Assembly: GCA_963803805.1 (NCBI GenBank)
Contig: CAWDOD010000011.1
Span: 544,001 to 608,000 of the forward strand
DNA length: 64,000 nucleotides
Direction of reading: 5' to 3'
Source of the DNA: an uncultured cyanobacterium
GTDB taxonomy: Bacteria > Cyanobacteriota > Cyanobacteriia > Cyanobacteriales > CAWCAG01
Below the pieces are notes generated by a model. That model did not search any database, was not told where the DNA came from, and was given only the letters and a program-made list of their open reading frames with translations. The position numbers and the translations under genes are program-made. Below, in pieces: positions 5,066 to 53,274 of the stretch (positions are counted from its first letter, which is position 1; each line of letters opens with the position of its first letter).

Positions 5066-5897
5066 ATGTCTTTGGAGGGTTGTTTTTCTATCATGGTAGA
5101 GATAGGAAAATTGTTTCGTGCCTGTAATCCTAATAAAACTCTAGACTTAAGTAAAGCTGAAGATTGGAGGTATTACATCGACTTTGCCAAGGTGAGAGGC
5201 AATAGTATCATTCAAGAGTTACAACGTACTATTGTTCTCTCAGAAGATGAACCGACTTGCCAATTATTCACTGGTCACATTGGTTGCGGCAAATCCACGG
5301 AGTTATCTAAATTGAAGACACAGTTAGAAAAAGAAGGCTTTCATGTCGTCTATTTCAAGTCTTCCCAAGATTTAGATATGGCTGATGTAGATATTAGTGA
5401 TATTTTACTAGCGATTACCCGCCAAATCAGCCAGAGTTTAGAGGATGCAGGAATTAAGCTGCAACCTAGTCGCTTTCAGGAGTTACTCCAAGGTGCAGCT
5501 ACTTTACTGAATTCTGATGTCATGGGTTTAAATGTTAAAGTCCCCAAGGGAGGTAATTGGGGATTAAAAGCGGAGAGTGATAAATTCAATCTTTCTCTGG
5601 GTATTGCCGAAATTACGACCAAAGCTAAGAATAGCACAACAATCCGTTCTCTTTTGCGGCAACATCTCGAACCAAGAGTTAATAGTATTTTAGAAGCCCT
5701 TAATCAGGAATTGATTGCCCCGGCACAACAACAACTTGAGGAGCAAAACAAGCCCGGATTAGTGGTAATTGTTGATAATTTAGATTGCATTGATAATAGA
5801 ATCCGTTTGGGAGACAAATCTCAACCGGAGTACCTATTTATTGAACGAGGGGAACAACTCAACAAACTTCAATGCCATGTTGTCTATACTATTCCCC
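5066..5897 (+). pseudogene. P-loop ATPase (GHIGCGKSTEL family), 3' end cut by IS
   Basis: Walker A GHIGCGKS, Walker B VVIVDNLD; the frame runs into the IS terminal repeat and stops. Confidence 0.85.
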
Positions 5898-7225: not shown

Positions 7226-8813
7226 GGCTGGCACAGTGAGTTTTAGCCCTGATGGGGATATATTGGCTTCCGGTCACTATGGCGGCATAATTAAGTTGTG
7301 GAACACAGAAACAGGAGAACAAATTCGCATCTTCGACAACAGATCAAATTATAGTGAAAGAGAGATTGTGGATTTTAGCCCTGACGGTAACATAGTAGTT
7401 TCTGGTAATGCCAGCGGTGGTATAACTTGGTGGAGTGTGGAGAAAGGAGAAGAGATACACTCCGATATCCGTAGCGGTCATGATGGCGGCAACCCTGTCT
7501 CCAGCGTAGAGTTTAGTCCTGATGGAAATATATTAGCTTCTGGTGGTGAAGATGGAACTATCAAACTATGGAGTGTAGGAACAGGAAACGAAATTATCAC
7601 CCTCCGGGGTCATGATGATGTTGTACATAGCATCAGTTTTAGTCCTCATGGAAAGGTATTAGCTTCTAGCAGTAACGATGGAACTATCAAATTGTGGAAT
7701 TTAGAGAAAGGAAGAGGAATCGATATTATTGGCAGGGGTAACGAATCTAGAATTACAGAAAGTTTTAATCTTGATGGTAATGTGTTGGCTCTTGTTAGTA
7801 ATGACGGAACTGTCATGCTATGGAACGTGGAGACAGGAGAAGAAATTATCACTATTCCAGTATACTTTTATACTGTCGATGGCGTAAAGTATTTGTTCAA
7901 GGTGCGTAGTGTAATTTTTAGCAACGAGGCTAAAGTATTAGCTCTTATTCATGATGACCAGGCTGTTAAATTATGGGATGTAGAGAAAGGAGAGGAATTT
8001 TCCACCATCCCACAGCATACTTACACTTCCAACAATGAAACTTATATTGCCAATTTCGGGAGCGCAGCTTTTAGCCATGATGGGAAGATATTATCCCTCA
8101 AATACAGCGACGGTACGATTAAGCGATGGGATATAGAGAAAGGAGAAGAAGTAAAGACTTTCCAAGGTAATGAGGATTACAGGAATCTAAGCTTTAATTC
8201 AGATGGAAGATTACTAACTTTTTCCATTAGTGAGAACAATATTATTACGTTATGGGATGCAGAGAAAGGAGAACAAATTACAACTTTCCAGAGAGGTAGA
8301 GGCAGTTTAGAGCATGTAGATTTTAATTCAGATGGAGAGTTATTAGCATATTTTGTTGATGAAGATAGCAATATTACGCTATGGGATATAGAGAAAGGAG
8401 AACAAATTAGCACTTTCCCAATAAACGAATACTACAACGTCAGTTATGGCAGCTCAGCCGGGGAAGTATCAGCTAAATTTAGTTTAGATGGAACAATGTT
8501 AACAGCGTTTACAGGTCAAGATTATACAAGTACAACCTTCAGACTCTGGGACATAGTGGGAGAGGAAGAAATCTTTACTCTTCAATTTGCATGGTATGAC
8601 ATGAACCTATATTCCAGACCCAATGATATATTTCTTACTAATAAGGAATTATTGGTATTTGATTTTGGCCAAGGGATTCTCCAATTTAGGCATACGAACT
8701 TGAACTTTTTAATAAAACGCAGTTGCGATCGCATCCGCAATTACTTAAAGTACAACCCCAACGTTAAAGAAGAAGATAAACGCTTGTGTGATGGTATTGG
8801 TATGGCAGATTAG
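7226..8813 (+). pseudogene. WD40-repeat protein, 5' end removed by IS
   Basis: Multiple FSPDG/GH...LW repeats; C-terminal CD...YL..NP...LC motif; the predicted ORF start lies inside the IS. Confidence 0.88.
8748..8802 (+). repeat. Direct repeat copy A (WD40 gene 3' end)
   Basis: 47/55 nt identical to 9616-9670 by hand alignment. Confidence 0.85.
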
Positions 8814-8871: not shown

Positions 8872-9288
8872 ATGCCAGCCAAAGACATCTATCATCACCA
8901 ACTCAAAAATGCTCTGATTAAAGATGGCTGGACAATTACCGATGACCCCTTAATTTTATCCATCGGTAAAAAGGATTTATTTGTTGACTTAGGAGCAGAA
9001 AAAATAATTGCTGCGGAAAAAAATAATCGCAAGATTGCGGCGGAAATCAAAAGCTTCGTTGGTAGATCGCAAATTAATGACTTAGAAAATGCTGTAGGTC
9101 AATATATGGTTTACCATCAGGTTTTATTGGAAACTAAAAGTGAGCGAGTTTTATATTTAGCGATTAGGCAATCATCTTATCAAGAAGTATTTGAAGAAAC
9201 TCTAGGTAAAATATTTTTAAAAAAGAAGCTGATTAACTTAATTGTTTTTGATGAAAACAAGGAGAGTATCTTACAGTGGATAGACTAA
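8872..9288 (+). CDS. xisH: XisH-family protein (restriction-endonuclease fold)
   Basis: MPAKDIYH...KDGWTITDDP...DLGAE...EIKSF...GQY. Confidence 0.93.
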   Translation: MPAKDIYHHQLKNALIKDGWTITDDPLILSIGKKDLFVDLGAEKIIAAEKNNRKIAAEIKSFVGRSQINDLENAVGQYMVYHQVLLETKSERVLYLAIRQSSYQEVFEETLGKIFLKKKLINLIVFDENKESILQWID

Positions 9289-9611
9289 CGGAACTTTATA
9301 ACATCATCTATCCTATTCTCAAGGAATATGCAGACTTGCCCTATGCAGACCGGAATTTAAAACATAAATTAGTCATCAGTGATGATCACAAAGACTATCT
9401 ATTAATGACCATCGGCTGGCGAGATGATGTCAAAATACATGGTTGTGTGGTTCATCTAGAAATTATTGACCAGAAGGTGTGGATACATCGGGATGGCTTA
9501 GAAGATGGTATTGCCGATGATTTACTCAGAGCCGGCATCCCTCCAAATCAGATCGTCCTGGCTTTTCATCCTCCCAAAATTAGACACTATACTGAATTTG
9601 CTGTCAATTAA
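9276..9611 (+). CDS. xisI: XisI-family protein
   Basis: YLLMTIGW...HGC..H.EI...KVWIHRDG.EDGIA..L...GIP...IVLAFHPP; overlaps xisH. Confidence 0.93.
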   Translation: MDRLTELYNIIYPILKEYADLPYADRNLKHKLVISDDHKDYLLMTIGWRDDVKIHGCVVHLEIIDQKVWIHRDGLEDGIADDLLRAGIPPNQIVLAFHPPKIRHYTEFAVN

Positions 9612-9895: not shown

Positions 9896-11248
9896 ATGAC
9901 TCCCCAAAACTACCACATAACTACCTTCGGCTGCCAAATGAACAAAGCCGACTCTGAACGTATGGCTGGTATTTTAGATGAGATGGGTTTAGTACATTCA
10001 GCAGATCCTAACCAAGCGGATTTGATTCTCTACAATACTTGTACCATTCGTGATAATGCCGAACAAAAAGTTTATTCTTATTTAGGTAGGCAAGCTAAAC
10101 GCAAACATCAACAACCTAACTTAACTTTAGTGGTGGCGGGTTGCGTTGCACAACAGGAAGGAGAAAAGTTGTTGCGACGAGTTCCAGAGTTGGATTTAGT
10201 CATGGGGCCGCAACACGCTAATCGTTTAGAAGACTTATTAAACCAAGTCTTTGACGGTAATCAAGTGGTTGCCACTGATCCTATTCATATCGCCGAAGAT
10301 ATCACCAAACCTCGGCGGGATAGTAAGGTGAGTGCTTGGGTGAATGTCATTTATGGTTGCAATGAACGCTGTACTTATTGCGTTGTTCCCAATGTGCGAG
10401 GGATAGAACAATCTCGCACCCCGGAGGCGATTCGGGAGGAGATGGAAGAGTTGGCCAGACAGGGTTATAAAGAAGTTACCCTGTTGGGGCAAAACATTGA
10501 TGCCTATGGTAGAGATTTACCAGGCAGCACCCCAGAAGGTCGTCACCAAAACACCTTGACAGATTTACTCTATTATGTTGCAGATATTCCCGGCATTGAA
10601 CGCATCCGCTTTGCCACCAGCCATCCTCGCTATTTCACAGAAAGATTAATCCGTGCTTGTCAAGAAATTCCCCAAGTTTGCGAACATTTCCACATTCCCT
10701 TTCAATCGGGGGATAATGAGATTCTCAAGGCGATGGCGCGGGGTTATACCCAAGAAAAATATCGCCGCATTATTAATAAGATTAGGGAATGTATGCCCGA
10801 TGCAGCCATTAGCGCTGATGCAATCGTGGCTTTTCCTGGGGAAACAGAGGAACAGTTTAACAATACCCTTAATTTAGTTGCAGACATCGGTTTTGACCAA
10901 CTAAATACAGCAGCCTATTCACCTCGCCCCGGCACTCCTGCGGCTTTGTGGGACAATCAATTAAGCGAGGAGGTAAAGAGCGATCGCCTGCAACGTATTA
11001 ACCGTTTAGTTGAGGTAAAAGCAATCGAGCGATCGCAGCGTTATTTAGGTAGGATTGAAGAAGTTTTAGTCGAAGATATCAACCCCAAAGATCCCAGCCA
11101 AGTAGTGGGGCGTACTAGAGGTAGTCGTTTAACCTTTTGTCAGGGAGATATTGAGGAGTTAAAAGGAAAAACAATTAAGGTGAAAATAACCGATATTAGA
11201 GCCTTTAGTTTAACAGGAGAAAGGGTGCTTGAGAAGGTGAGTGTTTAA
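9896..11248 (+). CDS. miaB: tRNA-2-methylthio-N6-dimethylallyladenosine synthase
   Basis: TFGCQMN, NTCTIR, radical [12 protein letters not shown]-terminal TRAM domain. Confidence 0.97.
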
Positions 11249-11299
11249 GTTTTGAATTTGAGAGTTTTTGTTAATAGAAAAATAACCAGCAAGCTACTT

Positions 11300-11860
11300 T
11301 TATTCAGGAGGTTCAAAAATACAAATAGATTGTGGCTCAATAGGACAAGTTTGATTAATAAGCTTCGGATTTCCCGACAGTCCAAGCGAAGTCAAATTAG
11401 TCAAGGAAGATAGAGGTGTTATATCTTTTATTTGGTTTTCTGCCAGTCCAAGCGAAGTCAAATTAGTTAAGGAAGATAGAGGTGTTATGTCCTCTATTTC
11501 ATTTACCCCCAAGTCAAGCGAAGTCAAATTAGTTAAGGAAGATAGAGGTGTTATGTCCGTTATTCCATTATTCCACAGGAAAAGGTCAGTAAAATTAGTC
11601 AACCGCCTCTGAGCAAGCTGGCAATCTTCAGTTTCAGCTTGTGTTAACAACACTTCAACAGTATGTTGAGCTTCATTAGTTAAACCTTCTTTATTTTCGC
11701 ACCATTCCGCAAAGCTTTCAAACTGCTGCCCTTGAGCCATTGCTTGATGCCCACCACCTCCCACCGTTAGCAATACAATTGCATAGGCAAAGCCCTTAAT
11801 AGACTTCGTGATTATCTCTTCACTCTGTTTAAACCACTGTTTTTGTTTTCTACTAATCAT
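11300..11860 (-). CDS. Secreted internalin-like LRR protein
   Basis: Signal-like N-terminus, FAEWC cap, three near-identical 22-aa DITPLSSLTNLTSL repeats, C-terminal CP..PQSIC cap. Confidence 0.88.
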   Translation of the reverse strand: MISRKQKQWFKQSEEIITKSIKGFAYAIVLLTVGGGGHQAMAQGQQFESFAEWCENKEGLTNEAQHTVEVLLTQAETEDCQLAQRRLTNFTDLFLWNNGITDITPLSSLTNLTSLDLGVNEIEDITPLSSLTNLTSLGLAENQIKDITPLSSLTNLTSLGLSGNPKLINQTCPIEPQSICIFEPPE

Positions 11861-11927
11861 GGGCTAACTCTTTAACCTGAAGAAATTTTATTATATTTAC
11901 TATGAGTCTTTATTTTGAAATAAAGAA

Positions 11928-11945
11928 GATGAAACCCGCCCCTAC
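11928..11945 (-). repeat. GTAG-type REP half element overlapping the caspase stop codon
   Basis: GTAGGGGCGGGTTTCATC, identical to the end of the 16545-16606 element. Confidence 0.7.
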
Positions 11946-13135
11946 TCCTTAACGATTAGCAAATCACCAGCAGAAACACTCCCCTCAACATTACCAATAG
12001 CCAACAAACCATTGCGAGTTTGATATCTTACCAAGCCTTGTTTACCAGGGACACTAAACTTCATCCCTCGTTCAACTTCACCAGGATCGATGCCACCTAA
12101 CCAGAATTTAGCCTGTCTGCCTTCAATTCTGGTTACTATAGCATGGGCTGCTGCTCTGGTGGGGGATGCAAAATAAATTGGTTGTTCTTCGTAACCGCTA
12201 CCTACTTCCACATTCAAAGTGGGAGTTTGTACAAAATCATCGGGAAGGTACTTTGTGATATTTTTTACTACATAAGCAATGGCTTCTTCTGGGTTGGTGT
12301 TTTCTTGCCAAAGATACTGGGTTAAGGCATAGGTGAATGCCCCGGCTGAGAAGCCATTAATCCAAGCATCCGCAGCGAGTTGATTAGGATTAGTTGAGGC
12401 AATAACTACTCCCTTAGCAACCCCTCGGCGATAACCAGCGATGAACTCTTGAGGAGAAATGTTTAATTTACTAAGCAATTGTTCTTGATAAGCTTTTTCT
12501 TCACCAGAAACCAGAGTTTCCTTACCTCCATCACGAGAGCGAATACGAATTTTTCTGTTAGCAGCCCCCGAAAAACAGCTATCTAAAACCGCCGTAAAGT
12601 TTTCTGTAGGTACAGCAGACATGAGTAAGTAGAGAGTATGACCCATAATATCTTTAACTGACCCTGATTGTTCTGGATATCCTGGGGGAAGAGTTGCATC
12701 GATGGGGACGAAAGTGCCGTTTAAATTGCTTTCTTCCTTGCTGAAGTCGGTAACAATGGGGTTAGGGTCAAAAATGCGCGAACCATGGCCAGAATAGTGA
12801 TAAACAGCCACATCCTCCGGTTTAACTTGGTTGATTAAGTATTCTTCAAAAGCCCCTAACATTCCTTTGCGGGTGGCATCTTGATTCAGGAGGAGATGAA
12901 TATCTTTGGGGTTAAAACCAAAGCGGTGAATTAATAATTCTCGCTGCATAAAAACATCGTTGATGCAACCTCTAAGAGGACTTTGGCTATAGTCATTGAT
13001 ACCAACCAAAAGGGCAACTTTACGGGGTGTACTTTGGGCTAAAACTTTACCGTAGCGTTCCCATTTACTTAAGCCCAAAGTGCTTAAGGTTGCCCCAGCC
13101 AATTGCAAGAAATGGCGACGAGATAGTTTACTCAT
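11942..13135 (-). CDS. Caspase-family (peptidase C14) protease with Tat signal
   Basis: SRRHFLQ twin-arginine motif; ALLVGINDY, HYSGHG and DSC catalytic dyad. Confidence 0.9.
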   Translation of the reverse strand: MSKLSRRHFLQLAGATLSTLGLSKWERYGKVLAQSTPRKVALLVGINDYSQSPLRGCINDVFMQRELLIHRFGFNPKDIHLLLNQDATRKGMLGAFEEYLINQVKPEDVAVYHYSGHGSRIFDPNPIVTDFSKEESNLNGTFVPIDATLPPGYPEQSGSVKDIMGHTLYLLMSAVPTENFTAVLDSCFSGAANRKIRIRSRDGGKETLVSGEEKAYQEQLLSKLNISPQEFIAGYRRGVAKGVVIASTNPNQLAADAWINGFSAGAFTYALTQYLWQENTNPEEAIAYVVKNITKYLPDDFVQTPTLNVEVGSGYEEQPIYFASPTRAAAHAIVTRIEGRQAKFWLGGIDPGEVERGMKFSVPGKQGLVRYQTRNGLLAIGNVEGSVSAGDLLIVKE

Positions 13136-13176
13136 ATCTAGATAGATTCTTATCTAATTGGTACTGGTATCTTTTT

Positions 13177-13238
13177 AATTTAGCCTGCCAATCAACATAA
13201 AAAACAGTTCGTTTCAAAAACTGTAACCTAAGTCAATG
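13177..13238 (-). promoter_or_regulatory. Conserved upstream module, copy 1 (before caspase)
   Basis: Aligns with 16471-16531 and 53006-53060; core AACGAACT-N-TTGGCA on the sense strand. Confidence 0.65.
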
Positions 13239-13319
13239 ATGTCTATGACAAGGGATGGATAGACTTCAAAACTGTCAATGATCCAAAGTGATCATTGTTC
13301 ATTGATAATTAATTATTGT

Positions 13320-16300
13320 TCACTGTTCCCCTTGAATAGTGAAAGCTGCCCAGTAATAAGGATCTTGCCAGTTACTGTCTTTTTGCCACATTTCTAATTG
13401 TGCTTCTCTTAAAGCAGCAGCAGGTTTTAGTTTTTCTTGGTACATTTTTTTGTAGAATGTACTCATCAACTCAGAGGTGGAACGGTCATTAACCGCCCAA
13501 AGACTGACCACAACTCGCTTTGCCCCTGCATACATAAAACCTCTGGTTAAGCTAACTAATCCTTCTCCGGCTAACTCTGACCCTAAGCCAGTTTCGCAGG
13601 CACTCAATACTACTAACTCCGCCGGGAGTTCGAGGTTATAAATAGTATCTAAACGTAACAAAGGGTCTTGTAATTCTCCTTGGGAATTATATACCGACAG
13701 TGCTAAACCAGAAAACTGAGGTACATCTTTGTTGAGACAACCGTGGGTGGAAAAGTGAACGGTTTGATACTGAGAAAGTTGAGGGCTGGTAGCGGTGGCG
13801 AGGGAAGCATCATAGCCAAAAGCTGCAAAGCTTTCATTTTCTGGTACAAGGGCAAGAATGTTTTCTGCTTCAGTGCGGGTATATTGTAGGTTTGGTAGGG
13901 AGAGGCAGACATTTTGGGCTGATCGGGTTAAGTCTCTTAAGTCTACGGTTTGTTGTCCTTCTAGTTCATAAACAGGGTCAGCAAAGACAGCAAGCTGTTT
14001 AGGGGCGAGGGGACGACCTTTGACCTGTTGGCGCAATGCCTCTAAACTGGAAGCAGAAGGGAGAGTGATGATTTCGTGGTTGGCGATTAGGGGCTTTTGA
14101 GCTAGGGAGTTGGGGAGAGGTAGGGCGGCGAAGGGGATGCTTTGTAAGGTTCCGTCGCCGACAATTAAAAGGCGTTTGTTGCCTAATTCCTGAACAGCAG
14201 GTCCAAGAATTATTTTGCTGAGTTGTTTGACTATTTCTGGGTTGTTAATGGTTTCACTGGCCATGTCGTTGCGAAATTTGTTAGCGAGTTGCTCAATTTC
14301 TGCTTGGGGAGGAAGTTCATAACTACTAACTTTGTCTTTACTAACCACCCAAAGATAGCTACCCTGCTCGCTGAGGTGGTATTCTAAGAGGAGGGTATCA
14401 TCATCAAGAACTTGCTCTTGAATTTCTCTAGTTTGTAGGGTAAACTTGGTTGGTTGATTAATGGCAGCATAGGCAGGACTTTGCAAACGAATAGTTGTTT
14501 CTATTTGGTCAAGTTCAGCCACAAGAGAATTGATTTCTTGGTTGAGGTTTGCTTGTTCTTTGGTTCTATAGGAACCTCGCAAAAGCTGGGCTTGCTCTTC
14601 TAATGCAGTAGCAAGTTGCTTAGTTGATGCTTTTTCGGCTTGAACTAGTTTTGGGTCTACTCCTTGGCGAATATCTACCCTAGCTTCTTGGAGTTCGGTG
14701 AGGAGTTGACGGGCGCGGATTCTTTCACTGTAGTAGAGTGCCTGACTATGGTATCCTTGGGAAGAATCTTTTTGGTGCAATTCCATCAGCAGCCTGATTT
14801 GAAAATCATAGTATTCTTCAACAGTTAGGAAAAAGGAAGTTTGCAGCCGGGGAGTAAGAATTTGGTTGCGAAGAAATTCAATATTTTCAATGGCTTGTTC
14901 CATAGACTCAGAGGCAGGGAGGAGATTATTTTGTTCGTATTGCAAGACAGCAATGTTTCTGAGGGTATTAGCTTCTCCGCTACGATTCTTGACTGCACGG
15001 TATAGGGATAATGCCTGGTTGTAATATTCTAAACCTCGCTGCTTTTCTCCTAAATTGTAATAAACAAGCCCAATGTTATTAAGAGTAACCGCTTCCCCAT
15101 CTTGATCCTCCACGGCAAGATACAAAGGTAAGGCTCGATTATAGTATTCTAAGGCTTGTTGCTTCTCTCCTAAATCTGAATAGATACCGCCAAGATTATT
15201 GAGAATACTAGCTTCCCCGCTGCGATTTTCCACAGCTAGGAAAAGAGGTAACGCCTGGTTGTAGTATTCTAATGCCTGCTGCTTTTCTCCTAAAGCGTTG
15301 TAAATACCACCAATGTTGTTGAGGGTGATAGCTTCTCCTTGGCGATCGCCTACAGCCCGACGAAGGGTTAAAGCTTGGTTATAATATGCTAATGCCTGCT
15401 GCTTCTCTCCTAAAATGTCGTAGACACTGCCAATATTGTTGAGGGTAGTAGCTTCTCCTTGGCGATCGCCTACAGCCTGACGAAGGGGTAAAGCCTGGTT
15501 ATAGTATTCTAATGCCTGCTGCTTTTCCCCCAACCCGTCATAGGCAGCACCAATATTATTAAGGGTAGAGGCTTCCCCATCTTGATCCCCTACAGTACGG
15601 AAAATAGGCATTGCTCGATTATAATATTCTAAGGCTTGCTGCTTCTCTCCTAAATCGGAGTAGACACGACCAATGTTATTAAGGATATTGGCTTCTCCGT
15701 TGCGATCGCCGATAGTAAGATAAAGGGATAATGCTTGATTATAGTATTCTAAGGCTTGCTGGTTTTCTCCTAAAGCTTTGTAAGTCAGGCCAATGTTGTT
15801 GAGGGTATCTGCTTCTTTGTCTCGATATTTTAGGGTACGAACAAGGAGCAAAACTTGATTATAGTATTCAAGTGCCTGCTGATTTTCTCCCCAAGCTTTG
15901 TAGATAGAAGCAATGTTATATAGTGCAGCAGCTTTACTATCGTGATCACCTACTGCACTATACAAAGACAATGCTTGTTTATAGTATTCAAGTGCTTGCT
16001 GATTTTCTCCCAAAGCATTATAAGCAAAGCCAATACTGTGGAGAGTAAGTGCTTCTCCATCCTGATCACCTACTGTACGATATAGGGACAATGCTAGGTT
16101 ATAGTATTCAAGTGCTTGCTGGTTTTCTTCTAAAGCATTGTAGGCACGACCTATTCCTAGTAAGATCAGGGCTTGTTGAGATTGATCTCCTTGTTGTTGC
16201 CAAAGTTGAAGGGCTTTCTCCCATTCAATGATACTTTGTCTTAGAGATGCTGTTGTTCCTTCTTGGTAAAGTCGTAATCCTTGTTCATAAGCTTCTTCAG

Positions 16301-16427
16301 CAGCAACAGAACTTTTCTGGGCAATTTCTGTTGGGTATGGGTTTGCAATGACAGTATGAATTGGAGAAGCTAGAGAGAGAAAGAAGGCGAGAAAAGCTTT
16401 CGACTTTGGACTTGAAGATGGAGTCAT
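13320..16427 (-). CDS. TPR-CHAT domain protein with signal peptide
   Basis: About 11 40-aa TPR repeats; CHAT motifs HFSTHG, LSACETG, PYYWAAF. Confidence 0.92.
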   Translation of the reverse strand: MTPSSSPKSKAFLAFFLSLASPIHTVIANPYPTEIAQKSSVAAEEAYEQGLRLYQEGTTASLRQSIIEWEKALQLWQQQGDQSQQALILLGIGRAYNALEENQQALEYYNLALSLYRTVGDQDGEALTLHSIGFAYNALGENQQALEYYKQALSLYSAVGDHDSKAAALYNIASIYKAWGENQQALEYYNQVLLLVRTLKYRDKEADTLNNIGLTYKALGENQQALEYYNQALSLYLTIGDRNGEANILNNIGRVYSDLGEKQQALEYYNRAMPIFRTVGDQDGEASTLNNIGAAYDGLGEKQQALEYYNQALPLRQAVGDRQGEATTLNNIGSVYDILGEKQQALAYYNQALTLRRAVGDRQGEAITLNNIGGIYNALGEKQQALEYYNQALPLFLAVENRSGEASILNNLGGIYSDLGEKQQALEYYNRALPLYLAVEDQDGEAVTLNNIGLVYYNLGEKQRGLEYYNQALSLYRAVKNRSGEANTLRNIAVLQYEQNNLLPASESMEQAIENIEFLRNQILTPRLQTSFFLTVEEYYDFQIRLLMELHQKDSSQGYHSQALYYSERIRARQLLTELQEARVDIRQGVDPKLVQAEKASTKQLATALEEQAQLLRGSYRTKEQANLNQEINSLVAELDQIETTIRLQSPAYAAINQPTKFTLQTREIQEQVLDDDTLLLEYHLSEQGSYLWVVSKDKVSSYELPPQAEIEQLANKFRNDMASETINNPEIVKQLSKIILGPAVQELGNKRLLIVGDGTLQSIPFAALPLPNSLAQKPLIANHEIITLPSASSLEALRQQVKGRPLAPKQLAVFADPVYELEGQQTVDLRDLTRSAQNVCLSLPNLQYTRTEAENILALVPENESFAAFGYDASLATATSPQLSQYQTVHFSTHGCLNKDVPQFSGLALSVYNSQGELQDPLLRLDTIYNLELPAELVVLSACETGLGSELAGEGLVSLTRGFMYAGAKRVVVSLWAVNDRSTSELMSTFYKKMYQEKLKPAAALREAQLEMWQKDSNWQDPYYWAAFTIQGEQ

Positions 16428-16470
16428 GGGATGGTAAGAGGCAGTAGATTAATTCACTAGCATATTTCTA

Positions 16471-16531
16471 AATTTACTTGCCAATTTTAGTAAAGAACAG
16501 TTCGTTGCCAAAAATGTAACCTCAGTCAATG
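16471..16531 (-). promoter_or_regulatory. Conserved upstream module, copy 2 (before TPR-CHAT)
   Basis: Aligns with 13177-13238 and 53006-53060. Confidence 0.65.
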
Positions 16532-16544
16532 GTCAATCAGATTT

Positions 16545-16606
16545 GTAAGGGCAGGTTTTCGTAAATCTCGGTTGTTGTCTAAAATCTTGATGAAACCCGC
16601 CCCTAC
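16545..16606. repeat. ~62-bp REP doublet/MITE-like element
   Basis: GTAAGGGCAGGTTT...AAACCCGCCCCTAC imperfect inverted ends; related to 50475-50535. Confidence 0.75.
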
Positions 16607-17286
16607 TAGGGTCTAATTTCCACTTTTGTACCCACCTCAACTACTTTATATATTTCCTCAACATCAGTATTCCTCAAAGAAACACAACCCCAAGTCCAAT
16701 TATCCCCTTCCTCGATTAAATTATCTTGTCCTGGGGGAACACCATGAATACCAATTTGCCCACCAATGGTAGCTAAAAGACTAATTTCTCCCTTTCTTTT
16801 TGCCTGCCAATGTTCACCCCAAGAATCAGCGTTAGGATAATCTAACCAGAGAAATTTTGACCAATTAGGGTGGGGATAAAGGTCACGAATAGAGTAAATT
16901 CCCTCTGGAGTTTTCATATCTCCTTCCTTAAGTTTATCTCCTTGAGGATTAGGACCAAAAACAACCGGATAAGCTTTGAGAGGAGTTTGTTGATAGTAAA
17001 TTGTGAGGCGGTATTTACTTTTTTCAATCAAAATAGAAGTGGCACTTTTGTCCAGGGGTTGATTGATTAGTTCGTTTAAAGATTGTTCGTAGTTGAGTAA
17101 ATCGTTGTTGGCTAAGGCAATATGTTGAGGTTTTTGCAACGACGAATTATCAAGATTGAGTAATTTTGCAAGCTGAGGAGGAGGAGGTAAATAACCTCTT
17201 TTATAAGCAAAGAAGTAAAATAATAAACCACTTATAAGTAATGTAGAGAACCAAAAAACAATCTTTTTTGTCTTGTATTTATTCAT
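16606..17286 (-). CDS. L,D-transpeptidase (YkuD) family protein with membrane anchor
   Basis: GD.KTPEG, IGIHG...WTWGCVSL catalytic motif. Confidence 0.9.
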   Translation of the reverse strand: MNKYKTKKIVFWFSTLLISGLLFYFFAYKRGYLPPPPQLAKLLNLDNSSLQKPQHIALANNDLLNYEQSLNELINQPLDKSATSILIEKSKYRLTIYYQQTPLKAYPVVFGPNPQGDKLKEGDMKTPEGIYSIRDLYPHPNWSKFLWLDYPNADSWGEHWQAKRKGEISLLATIGGQIGIHGVPPGQDNLIEEGDNWTWGCVSLRNTDVEEIYKVVEVGTKVEIRP

Positions 17287-17388
17287 AAGTTTAAGGGTAA
17301 GGCAGCAGATAGTAAGCTGTCTAGCGTTTAATTTACAATAGTGAGATGACTGGGTGATAGTCTGGCTTTGGCTATTTTTAGAAAATAT

Positions 17389-20300
17389 TTAATAATAAGC
17401 GTCACAGAGTTTGCGATCACTTTCTTTTACTTTAGGATTGTTTTTGAGATAGCCTTTTATTTTGTCACACCCATGTTGCAATAATTCGTCTAATTCTAAG
17501 CTTTTAGATATTAAGCCTTCGTAAGTTGCAAAAGCTATAGATTTGCCATCCGGACTAAAGCTTACATCTCGACCACTAAAACTACTGAAGGGAACATATC
17601 TTTCAAACATACCATCAATTAGCCAAAAAGCAACTATTTCTGATCTATTTTCTTCCTGTATAAAATTCACTGCTAACAATTTTCCATCAGAACTAAAGTT
17701 GATATTTTTAGCAGAATAGTTCTCATAATATTTTAAGGTTTTCACCGAAGTAGTGCCATTTGGCTTCCAAAGCTTTACTGTCCCGTCATCACTTGCTGAA
17801 ACAATTAAGTTCCCTTTAGGAGTAAATTTAGCATCATTAACTTCTTTTGTATGTTCATCAAAAGTTTTAGTTAAAGTACCATCTAGCTTCCGAAGCTCAA
17901 TGGTTTTCTCATCGCTAGCTGAGACAATTGATTGACCATTTGGGCTAAAGTCAATACTATTTACCCTCTCTCCGTGGGTTGCGATGTTTTTGAGTAAAGT
18001 TCCATCAGATTGCCAAATTTGTATTTTTCCGTCATTGCTACCAGAAGCAATTAGTTTACTGTCAGGACTATAACTAATTGCATTTATTTGATTGTCGTAA
18101 ATTTTAAATCTTTGAACAGATGTACTGTCACCTTTCCATAGTTTGATCCTACTATAGGGAGTCGTAAAAACAAAGTTGCTGCTATTAGGAAGAAATTTAA
18201 ACTGTCCACTGTATTCTTCAAAAGAATTAATTAAATTACCGCTACGACTTAAAATACTGACTTGCTTGTTATTGCTGCTGACCGCAATGAAGTCTCCTTG
18301 AGAGCTAAACACAATATAATTACTAATATCATCACTATAATCGCCTTCAAACTCTTCTAACAAAGATCCATTTCTATTCCAAATTTTTATTGTGTCCTGA
18401 TTTTCTTTGTCAAAGATTGCAGCTATTAAATCACTGCCAGGACTAATAATAATATCTTTGACATTGCTATCATCTTTATTAAGCGTTTTACTTAAACTGC
18501 TGCTAAGATGCCAAATTTTAATCTGATCGATTTTATCAACTGTTACTACAAGCTGACCATCTGAACTAATTTTAATCATTTTATAGTCTTTGAATGTTTT
18601 GACTTTACTTAAATTATCTTTCGTATTTACAATATTCAGTTGCTCACCAAATTTAAAAACTGAACCATTAGAATTACGTGAGACTAATTGATCATTGATA
18701 AAAACAAGTTCGCTATCATTGCTAAAGCTGATAATTTCTCCTCTCAAGCTTTTAAGAAGTTGTCCATCTTGCTGCAAAATATCCACTTGATTAAACTTTT
18801 GAATAGCAATAAGTTGGCTATCAGGGCTAAAGATTACTTTTTGCGCCTCGTCAAATTCTTCTAAAGAATTACTACCCCTTTTCCAGATAGCTATCTTCTT
18901 ACCATTACCAACAGCAATAAGTTGGCTATCCGGACTAAACTCTACTTCTGTTACATCTTTGAATTTTCTTAATACGCTGCCATCTTCTCTCAAAATTGCT
19001 GTCTCTTTATAGTTACCAATAACAATAAGCTGGCTATCCGGACTAAACCTGACTACTACTTTATTTTCCAATTCTTTCGGTTCAATGGCAATTCTTCTTA
19101 AGGAATCGCCATCTCTTCGCCATATTCCTATTTCTTTATCGTTGCTAATAGCAATAAGTTGACTATCCGGACTAAATTTGACTGTTGTTCCACCTTCAAA
19201 TTCTTTCAATAAACTACCATCTCTCCGCCATATTTTGATACTATCACCAGTGTTAGCACCTATAAGTTGACCATCAGCACTATATTCTATATTGCTGAGA
19301 ACTGTCTCAGATTGTATAGTTTCTAGTTGTTTAGAATCCGCAGACCAAATATTGATATTATCACTAACGCTAATAAAGGCAAGATTGTTATTATTAGGAC
19401 TAAAAGCAATATCACTAGCATACTCTCGGATACTTTCTATTAATTTACCGTTAGATTGCCATATATCTATACTGAATTCACTCAAGGCAGCAATCCTTTG
19501 AGAATCATGACTAAATTCGACTCGATAAAATTGATCAATATAATAAGGTTCCACTTTAAAAGTTGATACAGCAGCTTTTTGAGAATCAGGACTAAATTTA
19601 ACTTGATAATATTTCTCGAACGGTTTTATTTGTGAACTTAATAAAGTGATATCGTTACTGTTTTCTTTAATTTTTGCAGTTATACCAAAACCTGATTCAA
19701 AACTATTCTGTGGTGTTGAACTATCAATTGTAAGGGTTGGATTTACGACAATAGTATTTTCCTGACTTGTTTCTATTTCATTTAAGTCTTGCCTCAGCAA
19801 ATTACCTTCTTCATCCCAATACTGCTGATCTCCTTTCGTATCAGTGCTAACTAAAAAGAAATCATCTTCAGGTAGACCCAATCTAAAATCATATATATCG
19901 GAATGGTCAAGTTTCTTGTGTTTGTTATTCTTCAAGTCCCAAAGCATTACTATATTATCTTTAGCAACAGAAACAAGGGTTTGACTATCTTGGCTAAAAC
20001 GGATTTTAGTTGCTTTACCTTTGTGTCCAATAAAAGTCTTATCTATCGTGCCATCAATATTCCATAACTTTATTGTTGTATCATCACTCGCAGAAGCAAT
20101 TTTTTTACTATCCGAGCTAAATTCTACATCATTTACAGTCTCAGTATGACCTTCTAAAGTGTCAATATATTTACCTTCAATAGTCCAAAGTTTAACCGTT
20201 TTATCTTCGCTAGCAGACACTATATGTTTTTTGTCAGTACTAAAAGAAATATCTTTTATTGATCTAGTATGACCTTCCAAACGATTGATTTCTGAGTCAT

Positions 20301-22539
20301 CATAGAATGCCCTATGCAACGATATTAAAGTAAACATCTTGGCATCAAAAATTTTCCAGGGGGCAAGCTTAAGGAATTTGCCTGCTTTTATGTAAGTTAT
20401 CGTTCTATCTATCCCATCTTGTGAAGCTTGAAGAGATAGTGTTGCTGCAAAGCCGTTTAAAGCTGCTGTTGCTGCCACAAATGCAATTCCTGCTATGCCA
20501 GTTGCTACTAAACCCAATCCTATTAATGATCTACGGGCTGTCTTCAACTGCTTCTTAAGAGCATCATTGTATCTTGCTTCCGCAATCCTTCTTTGTTCCC
20601 TTTCCTTCTCTAATTCTTTGATCCATTTTTCTGACTGTAGCTGACGGACGAAAGGTACTAAGTAATCATGAACTAACTGATATCTATCGGATGGATTTGC
20701 AGGAACTCTCAAAACCATTCCTGATTGAACTAAAATATCTAAAACTAAATCAAAAGTTTCTTCTTTTCCTTTGAAATCAGGCTCTAAAATTGTACGAGTC
20801 TTTAAAGGACGGGTATTATTTTCATCAGTTAATAAATACAACACTAACTTAGTTACTTGCTCATTTCCTTTGCCACAATCTTTGACAACATCATCTAAAA
20901 ACCTATTTACCAACTGCTCCTTAGAACCCAGTTCCTCATACTTCGCCAATTGAGTTATGTTTTCTGCTTGTAATTGCGCCCCTACGACTTGTAACTCAAT
21001 CGGACTAACTTCCCCTAAATCACTAGCTAAATCTTTTACCAAAACATCTAATAATTCAGGTTCTAAGTTAAACTGAGTTTTAGCAGTAAGGTTTTCAATT
21101 ACCAACTTTGCTTCTACTTGAGAGAAGTTACCTAAATAACAGAGAATGTTTTTATTGAGAATGTCGTTATTAGCAACATCTAAACTAACTATGCGGTTGT
21201 TGCACTCCAATAAATAAAAAAGATAGTCTTCTCGCAAAGAGAGAATGATTTTAGTAAAAGGAATATTTAAACAGTCTTGCAGAAACTTATAAAAAACTTT
21301 CCTTTGCTTTGGTTCTTTGTAAACGAAGAAAAACTCTTCAAACTGGTCAAAGATAATTACAGTTAGTAAGTTGCTGTAGCTGTTTTCCCTTAATTGAGCC
21401 AAAATTGTTGCTAGGGAATCAAGATTTTTCTTCTGATTTTGTTGAAAAACAGTTTGTTGTAAGCAGCGTCCTAATTCTTTAACCCAACCTGCATAAACAC
21501 GCTGCAAAACAGGTAAAACTTGCCTTGCTTCTATTCTTTTTTGCTGCAAAGCTGGGATTAAGCCTGCTTCAATTAAGGAACTTTTTCCTACTCCCGACTG
21601 ACCATGAATAATTGTTAGTCTGTAATCACTACGTTCAACTCTTGCTACTAATTTATTAACATCCTGTTCCCTTCCCGAAGCTTTAATTTCTAAAGATATT
21701 TCTCCGGGGATAACAGGAGGTAAAGCAGGATTAGTAACCAACTGTTTTGCTTTTAACCGACTTGCACCAGTGAAGGCACGGAAACCAAACTGAGTTTCTC
21801 TGGTTTGTTGTTCTTGCTTAAGTTCAAAAGCTGTGAGATACTCCCCTTGTTGGAAATAAATTTGCCATAAGGTACTTAAAATATTAATGTAAAGTGCCGG
21901 ATCATAGCGAGGTTTGGTTGTCTCTTTTGCAGTTAATAAGGTTTCCTTTGCTGTTGTTTTTTCTCCTAATTGCTGTTGGGCTTTCCCTAAAGAAAAAAGA
22001 TACCAACCTTGATGAAAGTGGCGTTCCCATTCTAAGGAAGTAGCTGTATCTTCTTGCTTTTCTTGTAAAGCTTTTTCTTCAGCCTGGGCAAATAAATTTA
22101 AAGCTTGTTGAGACTGTTGTCGTGCTTTTTCTGGTGCAGATTTAGCTAAAGCAACTTCTGCCAGAAAACCATACATTCTTGCTTGGCGAAACGGGCTTGT
22201 TTTAATCTGCTCTAACTGCAAAGCTTCTTTAGCAATCCTTTCTAACTCTTGCCACTGCTCTAACCGATGTAATACTTCTGCTAAATAACTAATATACTTG
22301 CTAACAAAATCCTGACGATCAGCATCTTTGAAAGTCGCGATCGCTTGCTGAAAATACTTCCTTGCTTGTTGGCAAGCTTCCTCATATTCGCGACGTTGCT
22401 GTAGTGCATAACTGCGCCACCACAAACCCAAGTGTAAGTAAACAATTCCTTTTTTAACTTGGTTGCCAGTTACGGGATATAAAGCTAAACTACGTTTGTA
22501 ATGCTGCCTTGCTTCTGCTTGGTTATTTGTCCATCTACC
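17389..22539 (-). pseudogene. TPR - STAND (nSTAND1-like) NTPase - TM - WD40 protein, 5' end cut by IS
   Basis: GQSGVGKSSL, IIFDQFEEFF, LSLREDYL, YQLVHDYL, hydrophobic helix, many WD40 repeats; the predicted start lies in the IS. Confidence 0.88.
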
Positions 22540-23867
22540 CTGGTTGACTGACAAAAGATGGTAGGGAGAGAGGAAACGGAAGAAAGAGAAAGAGATTGAG
22601 GGAGTTGACAAAGAGGAGGGGAGCCTCCGATTGTGAAAGAGAAGAAACCACTCAAATCTTTCGCAATACGATGAAAAAGAACTCCCCTCTTTACAGTGCC
22701 TTGAAATCATGGCTGGGTCAAGGTAGTAATTGGAAACATCAAACACATCTAAAAACTTGCATCTGGATAATATTTGCCTTAGTCCATACAGGTAGCGTGA
22801 ATCTAACTAAATGGTCTGTTTATATACCTTGTCGAGGGTTATATGCTCAAAGTAAGCAAAGGCGTGTTCAAAGATGGTTGAATAATCCTCGAATCAATAT
22901 ACATAGGCTCTATAAACCTCTAATCACAGCAGCACTAGCTGACTGGGAAGAGCAGAAAATGTATTTGGGATTGGATACATCAATGTTTTGGGAAGAATAC
23001 TGCTTGGTGCGCTTATGTGTCATTCATCGGGGGAGAGCATTACCAATCGTGTGGCGAGTGATGAAACACAAAAGTGCGAGTGTGTCTTTCCAAGATTATC
23101 AAGAAATACTTCAACAAGCAAAGACAAGATTACCGGCAGGGTTAAAGGTAATACTCTTGGCAGATAGAGGATTTGTTCATAGTGAGTTGATGGAAATGTT
23201 AACCAACCAACTGGGATGGCATTACCGAATCAGGCTCAAAAGTAATAGCTGGATATTTCGAGGAGGTAAAGGTTGGTGTCAACTCAAGCATTTCCACTTT
23301 AATCGAGGAGAGGCACTTTGTTTACATCATGTCAGGCTATATAAACACTCCCAATCCCAACTAATCAATGTCATTGTGGGTCGTAATAACGTTAATGGCG
23401 AGTTTTGGGCTATCGTCAGTGATGAAAAAACAACTCTACAGACTTTTGCTGAATATGGGTTACGCTTTGATATTGAAGAAAACTTTCTTGATGACCAGTC
23501 TCAAGCATGGAATATTCAACGCTCATCAATCAGAAATGTCTGTGCCTTGTCCAGGTTATTTTTTATTTTAGCTGTGGCTACCCTCTATCTCAGCGCACAA
23601 GGGGTTGAGGTTGTCGAGTCCCGAAAGCGAAGATGGGTTGATACTCATTGGTTTCGTGGCAACAGCTATCTTCGTATTGGTTGGGATTGGGTTAAAGGAG
23701 CATTAATTCAAGGATGGAAACTTATTGATAGGGTTTGCTTTAGGACAAACCAAGACCCCTCACCTGCTATGGCTTCACGAAAGCAGCACCAAAAACGACT
23801 CTATCAATTTGAGTTCCAGGTGCAGACTTACTCTTATCCAACAACATAAGTTTTGTCAGTCAACCAG
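22540..23867 (+). mobile_element. IS4-family insertion sequence, copy 2 (1328 bp, inverted relative to copy 1)
   Basis: Same 17-bp terminal inverted repeats; identical transposase. Confidence 0.95.
22596..23849 (+). CDS. IS4-family DDE transposase (likely ATG at 22671)
   Basis: Identical protein to 5916-7169. Confidence 0.92.
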   Translation: MRELTKRRGASDCEREETTQIFRNTMKKNSPLYSALKSWLGQGSNWKHQTHLKTCIWIIFALVHTGSVNLTKWSVYIPCRGLYAQSKQRRVQRWLNNPRINIHRLYKPLITAALADWEEQKMYLGLDTSMFWEEYCLVRLCVIHRGRALPIVWRVMKHKSASVSFQDYQEILQQAKTRLPAGLKVILLADRGFVHSELMEMLTNQLGWHYRIRLKSNSWIFRGGKGWCQLKHFHFNRGEALCLHHVRLYKHSQSQLINVIVGRNNVNGEFWAIVSDEKTTLQTFAEYGLRFDIEENFLDDQSQAWNIQRSSIRNVCALSRLFFILAVATLYLSAQGVEVVESRKRRWVDTHWFRGNSYLRIGWDWVKGALIQGWKLIDRVCFRTNQDPSPAMASRKQHQKRLYQFEFQVQTYSYPTT

Positions 23868-24055
23868 TCTTGCACCATTGACTTACGACCCTCAGAATCT
23901 GGCTTCTTTTCCAATTTGTCAACAGCATCAACTAGATCGCTTTCTGAGCCAAACTTTTTCTTTAAAGCAGATTTAAGAGCATTGTAACTGTCTTTGATAG
24001 CATCTTTACTAAGGGCCGCTAGAGCAGCCACAATTGCTGTAGTTATGGGGTCCAC
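23868..24055 (-). pseudogene. Small helical protein or N-terminal domain (MDPITTAIVAAL...) truncated by IS
   Basis: GTG start; reading frame runs into the IS end. Confidence 0.7.
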
Positions 24056-24157
24056 GTTGAGCCTCAACCGTTTACTAAATTTGGCAACAAAGTTATTTTA
24101 GATAATATTATAAATACCTTGCCACTTTGTGAAATTACTGATCTTCTTTAGGGAAGT

Positions 24158-24226
24158 GGTGCGTTACGCAGGAGAAAAAATTAGGGAATTTTCGATAGGT
24201 ATTATTTGCCTGCTAACACACCCTAC
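24158..24226 (-). repeat. GTAG-type REP doublet
   Basis: GTAGGGTGTGTTAGCAGG ... CCTGCGTAACGCACC inverted arms. Confidence 0.7.
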
Positions 24227-24376
24227 TGGACTTTTGGATTATAGCGGAGAAGAAGCGCGAATCCATCTTCTAAGAATAGGGTTTTAGACCTTTTTTTATT
24301 TTGATAAATTTAGCTACAGTTTGCGATCGCCTCTTTTGGCAGTCTATAAAAGTATTAGATTGTTCCTAAGCAACTA

Positions 24377-25492
24377 ATGAATCAACATCATATCGAAGTC
24401 AAAGTTTCTGCACCCACTTTCGCCCATAATATTCGTAATCTGCGCGCCAAAGTTGCTCCTTCCCTGATTTGTGTTGTCATGAAGGCTAACGCCTATGGAC
24501 ATGGTTTGCAGGCATTAGCACCCACAGCCGTTGCAGCAGGGGCTGATTATTTAGGTATTTGCACCAACCCCGAAGCGGCGATTATTCGAGATTTAGGGTT
24601 GAATGTGAAGGTTATGCGCCTACGTATGGGCTTTCCCCAAGAATATGAAGAATCACTCTCTAGCTTGGATATAGAAGAACAAGTGGGTTCCTGGGATGCT
24701 GCAACTTACCTAGCCGATGCCGGGGTGAAACGGGGTAAAAAGGTTCGAGTTCATTTAAACATTGATACAGGTATGGGGCGTAGTGGTTTTTTCTCAACAG
24801 AGGTGGAAACCATTAAAAGAATCTGTTCCCTACCCGGCATAGAAGTTGTAGGAATTATGACTCACTTCGCCACTGCTGATGGTGAGAATCTCGATTTTAC
24901 TACCCAGCAAATGGAAGACTTTTATAAGTTACGAGAAGCTTTGGATGATTGTTTACCTGATGGTGTCTTAACCCACACCCACAACAGTGCTGCAACGGTA
25001 CGCTTAACCCCAAAATGCAATAGTTTGGTGAGGATTGGGGCTGCTTGTTATGGGGTACGAACTTCCCAAGATTTTACCAATCCCCCAGAACTAAAACCAG
25101 TTATGTCTGTGAAAACCAAAGTAGCCCAAGTAAGGAAAGTTCCCGCCGGGCGTACTATTGGTTACGGCAGTTTATTTACAACGAAGCGCGATAGTTTAAT
25201 TGCTTCTTTACCTGTAGGTTTTGGTGAAGGTTATCCGCGATCGCTATTTAACAAAGGTATTGTTTTAATTAAGGGCTATCGCTGCCCGGTGGTAGGTAGA
25301 GTTTCTTTGAACATTACCACGGTGGATGTAACCGATGTTCCCCAAGAGGTGCAATGGGGAGATGAGGTAGTCTTGGTGGGTTGCCAAGGCAAAGAAGAAA
25401 TTACTTTCGAGGAACTAGCAGATAAGTTTGCTAGCGTTCATACAGAAATCAACTTAATGGCTGGTTTTATGAATGAGGTTAGTTATGTTTAG
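24377..25492 (+). CDS. Alanine-racemase-family PLP enzyme (divergent)
   Basis: VMKANAYGHG, IDTGMGRSG, MTHFA, IGYG, VVGRVS motifs. Confidence 0.88.
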   Translation: MNQHHIEVKVSAPTFAHNIRNLRAKVAPSLICVVMKANAYGHGLQALAPTAVAAGADYLGICTNPEAAIIRDLGLNVKVMRLRMGFPQEYEESLSSLDIEEQVGSWDAATYLADAGVKRGKKVRVHLNIDTGMGRSGFFSTEVETIKRICSLPGIEVVGIMTHFATADGENLDFTTQQMEDFYKLREALDDCLPDGVLTHTHNSAATVRLTPKCNSLVRIGAACYGVRTSQDFTNPPELKPVMSVKTKVAQVRKVPAGRTIGYGSLFTTKRDSLIASLPVGFGEGYPRSLFNKGIVLIKGYRCPVVGRVSLNITTVDVTDVPQEVQWGDEVVLVGCQGKEEITFEELADKFASVHTEINLMAGFMNEVSYV

Positions 25493-52963: not shown

Positions 52964-53005
52964 AGGTAATAAGAAGCAGTAGATTAATTCACTGGCAGAT
53001 CATTC

Positions 53006-53060
53006 AATTTACTTGCCAACTAACATAAAGAATAGTTCGTTTCAAAAACCTTAACTTATA
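53006..53060 (-). promoter_or_regulatory. Conserved upstream module, copy 3
   Basis: Aligns with 13177-13238 and 16471-16531. Confidence 0.65.
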
Positions 53061-53241: not shown

Positions 53242-53274
53242 AAAAATCCCCCGCTTGGTAGCGAGGGATTTTTT
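53242..53274 (-). terminator. Rho-independent terminator after psaB
   Basis: AAAAATCCCCCGCT-TGGT-AGCGAGGGATTTTT stem-loop with A/T tails. Confidence 0.85.

Follow-up and report, generated by a model that had tools for sequence, protein, structure and literature searches.

A conserved gene pair of a Tat-signal orthocaspase and a TPR-CHAT protease, both predicted to be exported, in filamentous cyanobacteria

To our knowledge, the orthocaspases of cyanobacteria are usually seen as cytoplasmic cell-death enzymes, and almost none of them has a known substrate or partner. Another caspase-fold protease, the CHAT domain, is found at the C-terminus of a helical-repeat array in Csx29 of type III-E CRISPR systems and in separase. 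Both are cytoplasmic or nuclear, and their activity depends on a bound partner, control being exerted by securin or an RNA-guided complex. Two in-silico surveys, as far as their accessible parts go, treat true orthocaspases as cytoplasmic or transmembrane (TM)-anchored cell-death enzymes and list their accessory domains and TM segments, with no twin-arginine translocation (Tat) signal on a true orthocaspase and no CHAT neighbour (PMC7475262, PMC8283722). A Tat-like signal has been proposed by Klemencic et al. 2019, in the accessible part of their paper, for the inactive YS pseudo-orthocaspases (PMC6426788). Here, we describe a locus in a 64,000-nucleotide stretch of DNA (hereafter, the window) from an uncultured cyanobacterium (contig CAWDOD010000011.1, positions 544,001 to 608,000), in which the gene of a metacaspase-like protease, or orthocaspase, with a predicted Tat-type signal lies next to the gene of a protease composed of tetratricopeptide repeats and a CHAT domain (TPR-CHAT) with a predicted Sec-type signal. 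In the accessible literature, no account was found of a true orthocaspase with a Tat signal whose gene is linked to that of a TPR-CHAT protein bearing a signal; the supplementary tables of PMC8283722 and PMC6426788, which lay outside the search, may list members of the clade.

The functional unit at this locus is a two-gene module of putative cysteine proteases, the TPR-CHAT protein and the metacaspase-like caspase. An alignment of 20 caspase relatives, used as an anchor, retrieved 404 relatives from species-representative genomes, of which the best 80 loci were kept and compared with the window proteins by tblastn. A CHAT gene was taken as orthologous if it matched at 200 bits or more (about 50% identity), on the strand of the caspase and within about 6 kb. 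Such a gene stands beside the caspase in 45 of the 80 loci, 30 times in the order caspase then CHAT and 15 times in the reverse order, which is that of the window. Most of the loci that yield no CHAT match (29 of 35) are cut short by a contig end, which leaves under 6 kb of flank on that side. Clustering of the open reading frames (ORFs) of 82 sources, i.e., the 80 loci, the window and a second locus of the same genome on contig C2, returned only three families that exceeded 11 sources, namely the caspase, present in 81, the TPR-CHAT protein, present in 42 in addition to partial and long forms, and a Fic/Doc protein, present in 17. The organisms are nearly all filamentous cyanobacteria and belong to several orders, a spread indicating that the caspase-CHAT linkage is old. 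Genera with relatives include Anabaena, Tolypothrix, Nostoc and Arthrospira, and the pair is also represented in Trichodesmium and Planktothrix. That the pair has been kept across many filamentous cyanobacteria suggests a protease team that would work outside the cytoplasm.

The genome of the window carries the pair twice. The copy on C2, composed of a 400-aa caspase and a 1001-aa TPR-CHAT protein, has the order and strand arrangement of the window pair. The single short caspase of G001, a genome of the same genus, is 89.5% identical to the C2 copy, and the two loci share the synteny PFK-SRAP-caspase-CHAT; the window pair is therefore a lineage-specific duplicate that now stands beside a YkuD gene. 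In a sample of 301 genomes spread evenly across the phylum (E-value thresholds of 1e-100 for the caspase and 1e-90 for TPR-CHAT), the short caspase was found in 12 genomes, including that of the window, and a longer form alone in eight more, while the TPR-CHAT subfamily was found in 48. This census scored five TPR-CHAT candidates per genome, and some of the sampled genomes are also among the 80 loci. Eleven of the 12 short-caspase genomes also have the TPR-CHAT subfamily, and by coordinates the two genes are adjacent in six of the 11 other short-caspase genomes; in genome G092, a long-form caspase adjoins two TPR-CHAT genes. The relation is thus asymmetric: the caspase is nearly always accompanied by this CHAT protein, which also occurs alone.

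The Doc/Fic toxin gene lies near the caspase, on the same strand, at L006, L027, L030, L033, L039, L040, L041, L059, L061, L062, L064, L066, L067, L068, L072, L075 and L076. That of L064 matches the Pfam Fic family at E 1.7e-18. In 15 of the 17 loci, the toxin gene follows a small ORF that looks like an antitoxin gene and encodes a conserved C-terminal tail. Where a CHAT match is present, the toxin gene usually lies between caspase and CHAT in either gene order, the exceptions being L027 and L072. The gene is absent from the window.

The caspase matches the C14 peptidase family (PF00656) at 78 bits (cut-off 21.4) over residues 38-307. Its dyad motifs, SGHGS and LDSC, are conserved in relatives: H117, G118, D185, S186 and C187 are invariant in an alignment of 20 sequences; of these, G118, D185 and C187 stay invariant with 100 sequences, where H117 is conserved to at least 90%. 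Identity between caspases of distant families amounts to 55-62%. An AlphaFold2 model built from 100 sequences, which replaced a discarded 20-sequence model (mean pLDDT 60.6), has a mean pLDDT of 87 and a pTM of 0.85; residues 1-34 score below 50 and the fold begins at residue 39. The top Foldseek matches of the model are Arabidopsis metacaspase 4 (6w8r, E 8.1e-16) and metacaspase 9, followed by Geobacter GSU0716 and the caspase-Ig3 region of MALT1. By profile comparison, yeast Yca1 (4f6o) is matched at E 6.6e-22, with the p20 and p10-like stretches both aligned. On the basis of the invariant D185 by the catalytic cysteine and of an acidic residue near position 256, the enzyme is predicted to cleave after Arg or Lys. 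The caspase fold is followed by a small C-terminal beta domain (residues 330-397, approximately) that has no match in Pfam; a look-up of residues 322-397 in the ESM Atlas gave best scores of 0.82-0.83, which lie in the chance range. The longer relatives keep the caspase and beta-domain region and add a DUF4384 domain. They make up a widespread sister family of predicted Tat-signal caspases of about 710-810 aa, one member of which (725 aa, C7:84019-86196) is encoded in the genome of the window.

The TPR-CHAT protein matches TPR_12 at E 9e-81 and CHAT (PF12770) at 222 bits (cut-off 24). H895 and C944, which stand in the contexts THG and SAC, are invariant among 31 orthologs. The first-pass annotation of this DNA had judged both dyads, H-G/D-S-C in the caspase and HG/SAC in the CHAT domain, to look intact, and the conservation among relatives bears it out. 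The CHAT half, searched by sequence against solved structures, found only a coat-protein match at chance level (E 0.0016). The similarity to the NCBIfam Csx29 family is weak (E 7.9e-5, 21.7 bits, with a cut-off of 300), and the protein is not a member of it.

The repeat array of the caspase-CHAT module is exchangeable. Long caspase-linked CHAT proteins with signal-like N-termini occur at L016, L018, L032, L034, L040, L049 and L076; they reach 1657-1945 aa in the five complete ORFs, those of L040 and L049 being cut by the locus end. In the protein of L018, some 22 WD40 repeats precede the CHAT domain in place of the TPRs. Tandem CHAT duplicates are present at several loci, and the number of TPRs varies. 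The genome of the window has 39 CHAT and 10 C14 matches in all, among them three TPR-CHAT paralogs of the same subfamily, two of which are paired with a caspase. The third is 74% identical to the 1035-aa protein over 735 residues. The psaA-psaB genes precede it on the same strand at a distance of 338 bases (window 50561-57960); this adjacency was considered as a thylakoid hint and rejected, as it is not retained in G001. Other CHAT proteins of the genome are very long (1100-2660 aa, e.g., at C4:62547, C11:222750, C9:217872 and C8:44878) and have a signal-like segment at the start, after which comes a stretch of the type A-x-D-G-T-G-T. This stretch appears to resemble the secretion domain of two-partner-secretion exoproteins.

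Export of both proteins is predicted from motif, hydrophobicity on a Kyte-Doolittle (KD) scan and conservation: the caspase carries a putative Tat-type signal and the TPR-CHAT protein a putative Sec-type signal. In the S-R-R-H-F-L-Q motif of the caspase, R6, R7 and F9 are invariant among 100 relatives, and a regular expression for the twin-arginine motif matches 75 of 81 caspase ORFs; the six misses comprise two with both arginines and a variant next position, one cut by a contig end and three partial ORFs. Of the 2999 ORFs in the genome that reach 200 aa, only 13 have a Tat-type motif followed by a hydrophobic stretch, and three of the 13 are caspases. TatC is encoded in the genome (PF00902, 221.7 bits, C4:213973-214584). 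A small-x-small site, V-L-A, occupies residues 31-33 of the caspase, and the disordered start of the model, with the fold commencing at residue 39, fits cleavage after this site. In the TPR-CHAT protein, a hydrophobic segment spans residues 11-29 (KD 2.15 for 11-21), with Lys residues before it and V-I-A after it. A hydrophobic N-terminus, defined as an 11-residue window with a KD of at least 1.8 upstream of the first TPR motif, is present in 35 of 36 assessable TPR-CHAT orthologs, i.e., those in which the first conserved TPR motif could be placed (24 further ORFs, either partial or with a variant motif, were left uncounted), and in all seven long CHAT forms. The measure discriminates, since 18 of 35 CHAT ORFs of the genome (the 39 matches minus four short fragments) pass a KD of 2.0 and 17 do not. 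Basic residues precede the hydrophobic (h-) regions, so that the mature parts of both proteins would be placed outside. Together with the four of 10 C14 ORFs that have RR-type N-termini, the 18 CHAT ORFs indicate that signal-bearing caspase-fold proteases are common in this genome; the premise of the first-pass annotation that caspase and CHAT proteins are mostly cytoplasmic fails here.

In the model that we favour, the TPR-CHAT protein would cross the membrane unfolded via Sec and the caspase folded via Tat, and outside the cytoplasm the two proteases would share a proteolytic pathway. Binding of a target or partner would fall to the repeat array of the CHAT protein, made of TPRs here and of WD40 repeats in some lineages, and the caspase, predicted to be of the Arg/Lys type, would process either the CHAT protein or the same target. 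It appears rather probable that the exported pair acts in a single pathway. A specific two-step cascade of caspase and CHAT protease is a narrower proposal that we consider doubtful. A further idea is that filamentous cyanobacteria possess a ligand-triggered extracytoplasmic cascade, in which an exported orthocaspase and a repeat-guided CHAT protease meet in the filament-wide periplasm or the lumen, one of them activates the other and a multicellular trait is thereby controlled. This would be a long shot; if it were true, the trait could be, e.g., the formation of sacrificial cells with filament breakage, or defence at the level of the envelope.

Several observations weigh against a team of two exported proteases. 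The h-region of the caspase (residues 12-22, after SRRHFLQ) is weakly hydrophobic, with a KD of 1.44, and the likely cleavage site at V-L-A follows it only after some 15 conserved residues. Six of the 80 loci have at least 6 kb on both sides and yield no orthologous CHAT gene at the threshold used; one of them, L035, keeps a fragment. Moreover, as the organisms behind the 80 loci are related, the loci do not count as independent cases. The intergenic gap between caspase and CHAT is 184 bases in the window and 460 on C2; given these gaps and the interposed Phd-Doc pairs elsewhere, co-transcription is not assured. Among the best 120 longer caspase relatives there is no caspase-CHAT fusion, all being caspase-DUF4384 proteins. 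Finally, the CHAT subfamily is spread more widely than the caspase in the phylum-wide sample and the third paralog has no caspase, and CHAT therefore does not need the caspase. Scans of positions 11000-24400 for promoters and terminators gave counts at or below those expected from shuffled sequence and are uninformative on operon structure. A complex prediction for CHAT residues 500-1035 with caspase residues 34-397, made with alignments, scored 0.00 (mark, 0.32) and is evidence neither for nor against an interaction.

A different role for the same pair would be that of a secreted conflict module, serving defence, competition or kin discrimination and acting on foreign or neighbouring cells, not on envelope or lumen proteins of the producing cell. 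The copy-number variation in the genome, with its three TPR-CHAT paralogs and two pairs, the tandem CHAT duplicates, the swap between TPR and WD40 arrays and the varying TPR number would all suit such a module, as would the Phd-Doc addiction module near the caspase in 17 loci, the patchy distribution (12 of 301 genomes) and the many other CHAT proteins of the genome that have signal-like N-termini. However, PADLOC-DB 2.0 returns only generic models for 'caspase' (E 3e-16), 'TPR' and repeats, with nothing system-specific; the good conservation of the caspase between distant families fits a housekeeping role as well; and no immunity-like small gene recurs in the loci. We consider a conflict function unlikely, though a serious alternative.

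It might also be argued that the N-terminal segments are not cleaved signals, and that the proteins are cytoplasmic, or anchored with their catalytic domains inside, in the manner of cytoplasmic cell-death effectors. The weak h-region of the caspase would agree with this, and the accessible part of one survey lists a small number of orthocaspases in which a TM segment precedes p20 and which are considered membrane-bound (PMC7475262). Against it stand the S/T-R-R-x-F-L motif, invariant in the family, rare in the genome and followed by the small-x-small V-L-A, the basic residues ahead of the h-regions, and the retention of the CHAT signal in all but one of the 36 orthologs. We consider a cytoplasmic location of the catalytic domains improbable.

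The first-pass annotation had proposed a larger unit, in which a leucine-rich repeat (LRR) protein, the two proteases, a YkuD-type L,D-transpeptidase and a STAND-WD40 protein constitute one periplasmic or surface system for surveillance and proteolysis: the repeat arrays would sense, the STAND protein would signal, the proteases would execute and YkuD would remodel the wall. The features on which this was founded are real. Positions 11300-22746 hold five minus-strand ORFs (the fifth, as read, being 17389-22746; Table 1) that are co-oriented and separated by gaps of only 81-184 bases; ORFs and Pfam matches agree with the domains stated for them, and the KD scan gives a hydrophobic segment wherever a signal or TM helix had been placed, so that each of the five has one. 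Moreover, some caspase-linked CHAT proteins elsewhere bear WD40 arrays, and LRR loci are enriched near C14 and CHAT genes in the genome, as detailed below. Conservation speaks otherwise. Of the five-gene neighbourhood, the caspase-CHAT part recurs in other cyanobacteria, whereas the LRR gene was found in none of the 80 caspase loci, YkuD in three and a STAND NTPase in one, where it lies about 8 kb away on the opposite strand. The paralogous pair on C2 has no LRR, YkuD or STAND gene with it. In G001, the pair and YkuD are on different contigs, C1 and C5, respectively, and no STAND ortholog was found, the closest STAND match being 45% identical. The proposed coupling of a five-gene cascade to wall remodelling is thus not upheld; we regard a single five-gene system as very improbable, and three unrelated units make up the block at 11300-22746, a juxtaposition specific to this genome.

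The LRR protein has a hydrophobic segment at residues 23-33, and its internalin-like LRR matches fall far under the cut-off. The genome contains seven LRR loci of this type, four of which have a C14 or CHAT ORF no more than 5 kb away; under random placement, 0.72 would be expected (P ~0.003, or 0.017 for three of six loci if the window is excluded). These neighbourhoods do not resemble operons: one LRR gene converges with a CHAT gene that lacks a signal, another is parted from a long Tat-caspase by a membrane-protein gene and a further one is 3.7 kb from a CHAT-CHASE2 gene. In G001, judged solely by coordinates, the distance to a CHAT match is about 0.6 kb for one of the five LRR loci and about 5.2 kb for another; the best match to the window protein (62% identical) is on contig C9, away from the caspase. 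The association of LRR genes with C14 and CHAT genes is weak and at the level of the lineage, and does not count as evidence for the five-gene model. The LRR gene stands outside the conserved module and is possibly, at most, a lineage-specific associate.

The YkuD protein has an N-terminal hydrophobic segment at residues 9-27 (KD 2.07) and the active-site H...G-C motif (IHG ... WGCVSLRN). All three of its matches in the caspase loci are weak, at 26-27% identity. An ortholog (E of 1e-20 or lower) is present in five of 41 related genomes, including that of the window. No other window gene occurs in the flanks of the orthologs of G001 (17-20 kb each way), G008 and G033 (about 10 kb each way) and G017 (a 3.2-kb contig); the G001 ortholog, on C5, is 90% identical. 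YkuD is an ordinary wall enzyme and an independent neighbour.

The STAND gene is likewise a separate, self-contained NLR-like gene, recently disrupted by an insertion sequence (IS). Its protein matches nSTAND1 (PF20703) at 121 bits as well as WD40, and has one internal TM segment (KD 2.25), which parts the NTPase from the WD40 array; the segment is preceded by Lys and Arg, a placement that puts the NTPase inside and the array outside. The IS, delimited by a search of the genome with positions 22300-24400, has the terminal inverted repeats CTGGTTGACTGACAAAA, and its transposase matches NF033591 (IS4 family) at E 5.5e-36, under the family cut-off. A second copy, 100% identical, lies on the opposite strand at window positions 5898-7227, and copies of 86-88% identity are on contig C1. 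The gene had been described as IS-truncated. An IS is indeed present, but the gene is interrupted and not truncated, its 5' piece lying beyond the element at 23868-24055. This piece matches HetE-N (PF20701) at E 9.6e-10 over profile positions 1-59 of 102, and, as the two junctions read, excising the 1330 bases restores the frame; the gene was therefore once a complete NLR-like gene composed of HetE-N, TPR-like region, nSTAND1, TM segment and WD40 repeats. Its domains are present, yet the frame is broken by the IS. Possessing its own HetE-N domain, and being split, the gene fits poorly as the signalling part of a five-gene system, and neither a caspase nor a YkuD gene lies near three STAND paralogs of the genome, one of which is about 6 kb from an unrelated CHAT gene. 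The 62-residue HetE-N piece was also used to look for an effector sharing this domain, and has no paralog in the genome. Elsewhere in the window (5066-8813), the second IS copy parts a 277-aa P-loop ORF (5066-5897), which has weak AAA_22, KAP and nSTAND5 matches, from a WD40 ORF (7228-8813). By coordinate arithmetic, removal of 1330 bases brings the two ORFs into a single frame, and they may represent a second NTPase-WD40 gene split by the same IS.

That caspase and CHAT genes are neighbours by chance is practically negligible as an explanation, since, even if some neighbours are expected with 39 CHAT and 10 C14 matches in the genome, the partner always belongs to the same CHAT subfamily (about 50% identity, compared with about 30% for other CHAT proteins) and shares the strand of the caspase in 45 of 80 loci, which represent many genera and both gene orders.

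Table 1. Annotated features of the window, in window positions.
Feature	Positions	Strand	Evidence and remarks
Small LRR protein of predicted secreted type, 186 aa	11300..11860	-	Pfam LRR_4, E 1.2e-18; follows the caspase after 81 bases
Metacaspase-like protease (orthocaspase), 397 aa	11942..13135	-	Pfam PF00656 Peptidase_C14; Tat-type motif SRRHFLQ
TPR-CHAT protease, 1035 aa	13320..16427	-	Pfam TPR_12 and CHAT; predicted Sec signal, TPR array, helical linker, C-terminal CHAT
YkuD-type L,D-transpeptidase, 226 aa, predicted membrane anchor	16606..17286	-	Pfam YkuD PF03734, 77.3 bits
STAND gene, 3' part	17389..22537	-	TPR-like region, nSTAND1, one TM helix, WD40 array of about 1000 aa
IS4-family insertion sequence, 1330 bases	22538..23867	+	Search against the same genome; splits the STAND gene
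STAND gene, 5' piece, 62 residues, HetE-N	23868..24055	-	Pfam PF20701
Third TPR-CHAT paralog, 800 aa	50561..52963	-	Pfam CHAT, 223 bits; no caspase neighbour
MiaB-type radical-SAM enzyme, flanking gene	9896-11248	+	Pfam
Alanine racemase, flanking gene	24377-25492	+	Pfam
XisH/XisI gene pair, between the WD40 ORF and the MiaB-type gene	8872-9611		Pfam, E 1.5e-54 and 5.2e-37

The caspase-CHAT pair provides two handles on a group of enzymes whose partners are scarcely described: a widely conserved clade of apparently active orthocaspases with an invariant, predicted Tat-type signal, and a fixed partner gene for the clade that encodes a signal-bearing TPR-CHAT protease. It also carries a warning for annotation, in that dense clusters of caspase, CHAT, STAND, WD40 and LRR genes should not be read as single systems without a test of conservation.

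Comparison with described systems sets the two proteases apart. The STAND gene of the window resembles the nSTAND1 NLR-like conflict proteins defined, in its accessible part, by Kaur et al. 2021 (PMC8195603), in that it combines a HetE-N adaptor or effector domain, an nSTAND1 NTPase and a repeat array; it differs in having a TM segment that would put the WD40 array outside, and in being split by an IS. The caspase shares with metacaspases and orthocaspases its C14 membership, the His/Cys dyad, the Asp by the catalytic Cys and a single-chain fold of p20 and p10-like parts, and is unlike them in its invariant Tat-type signal and small C-terminal beta domain. In the YS pseudo-orthocaspases, according to the accessible part of their description, Tyr and Ser replace His and Cys and the proteins are presumed inactive (PMC6426788), whereas the present caspase keeps the dyad and has a protease partner gene. 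The layout of a caspase followed by a small beta domain recalls the paracaspase MALT1 (caspase-Ig3), and the structural matches reach E ~1e-10; the resemblance is one of layout alone, as identity is 13-17% and MALT1 is a eukaryotic cytoplasmic signalling protease. Finally, the TPR-CHAT protein of the window, like Csx29 and separase, joins a helical-repeat array to a C-terminal CHAT domain, but unlike them it has a predicted signal peptide and a second caspase-fold protease with which it forms a pair.

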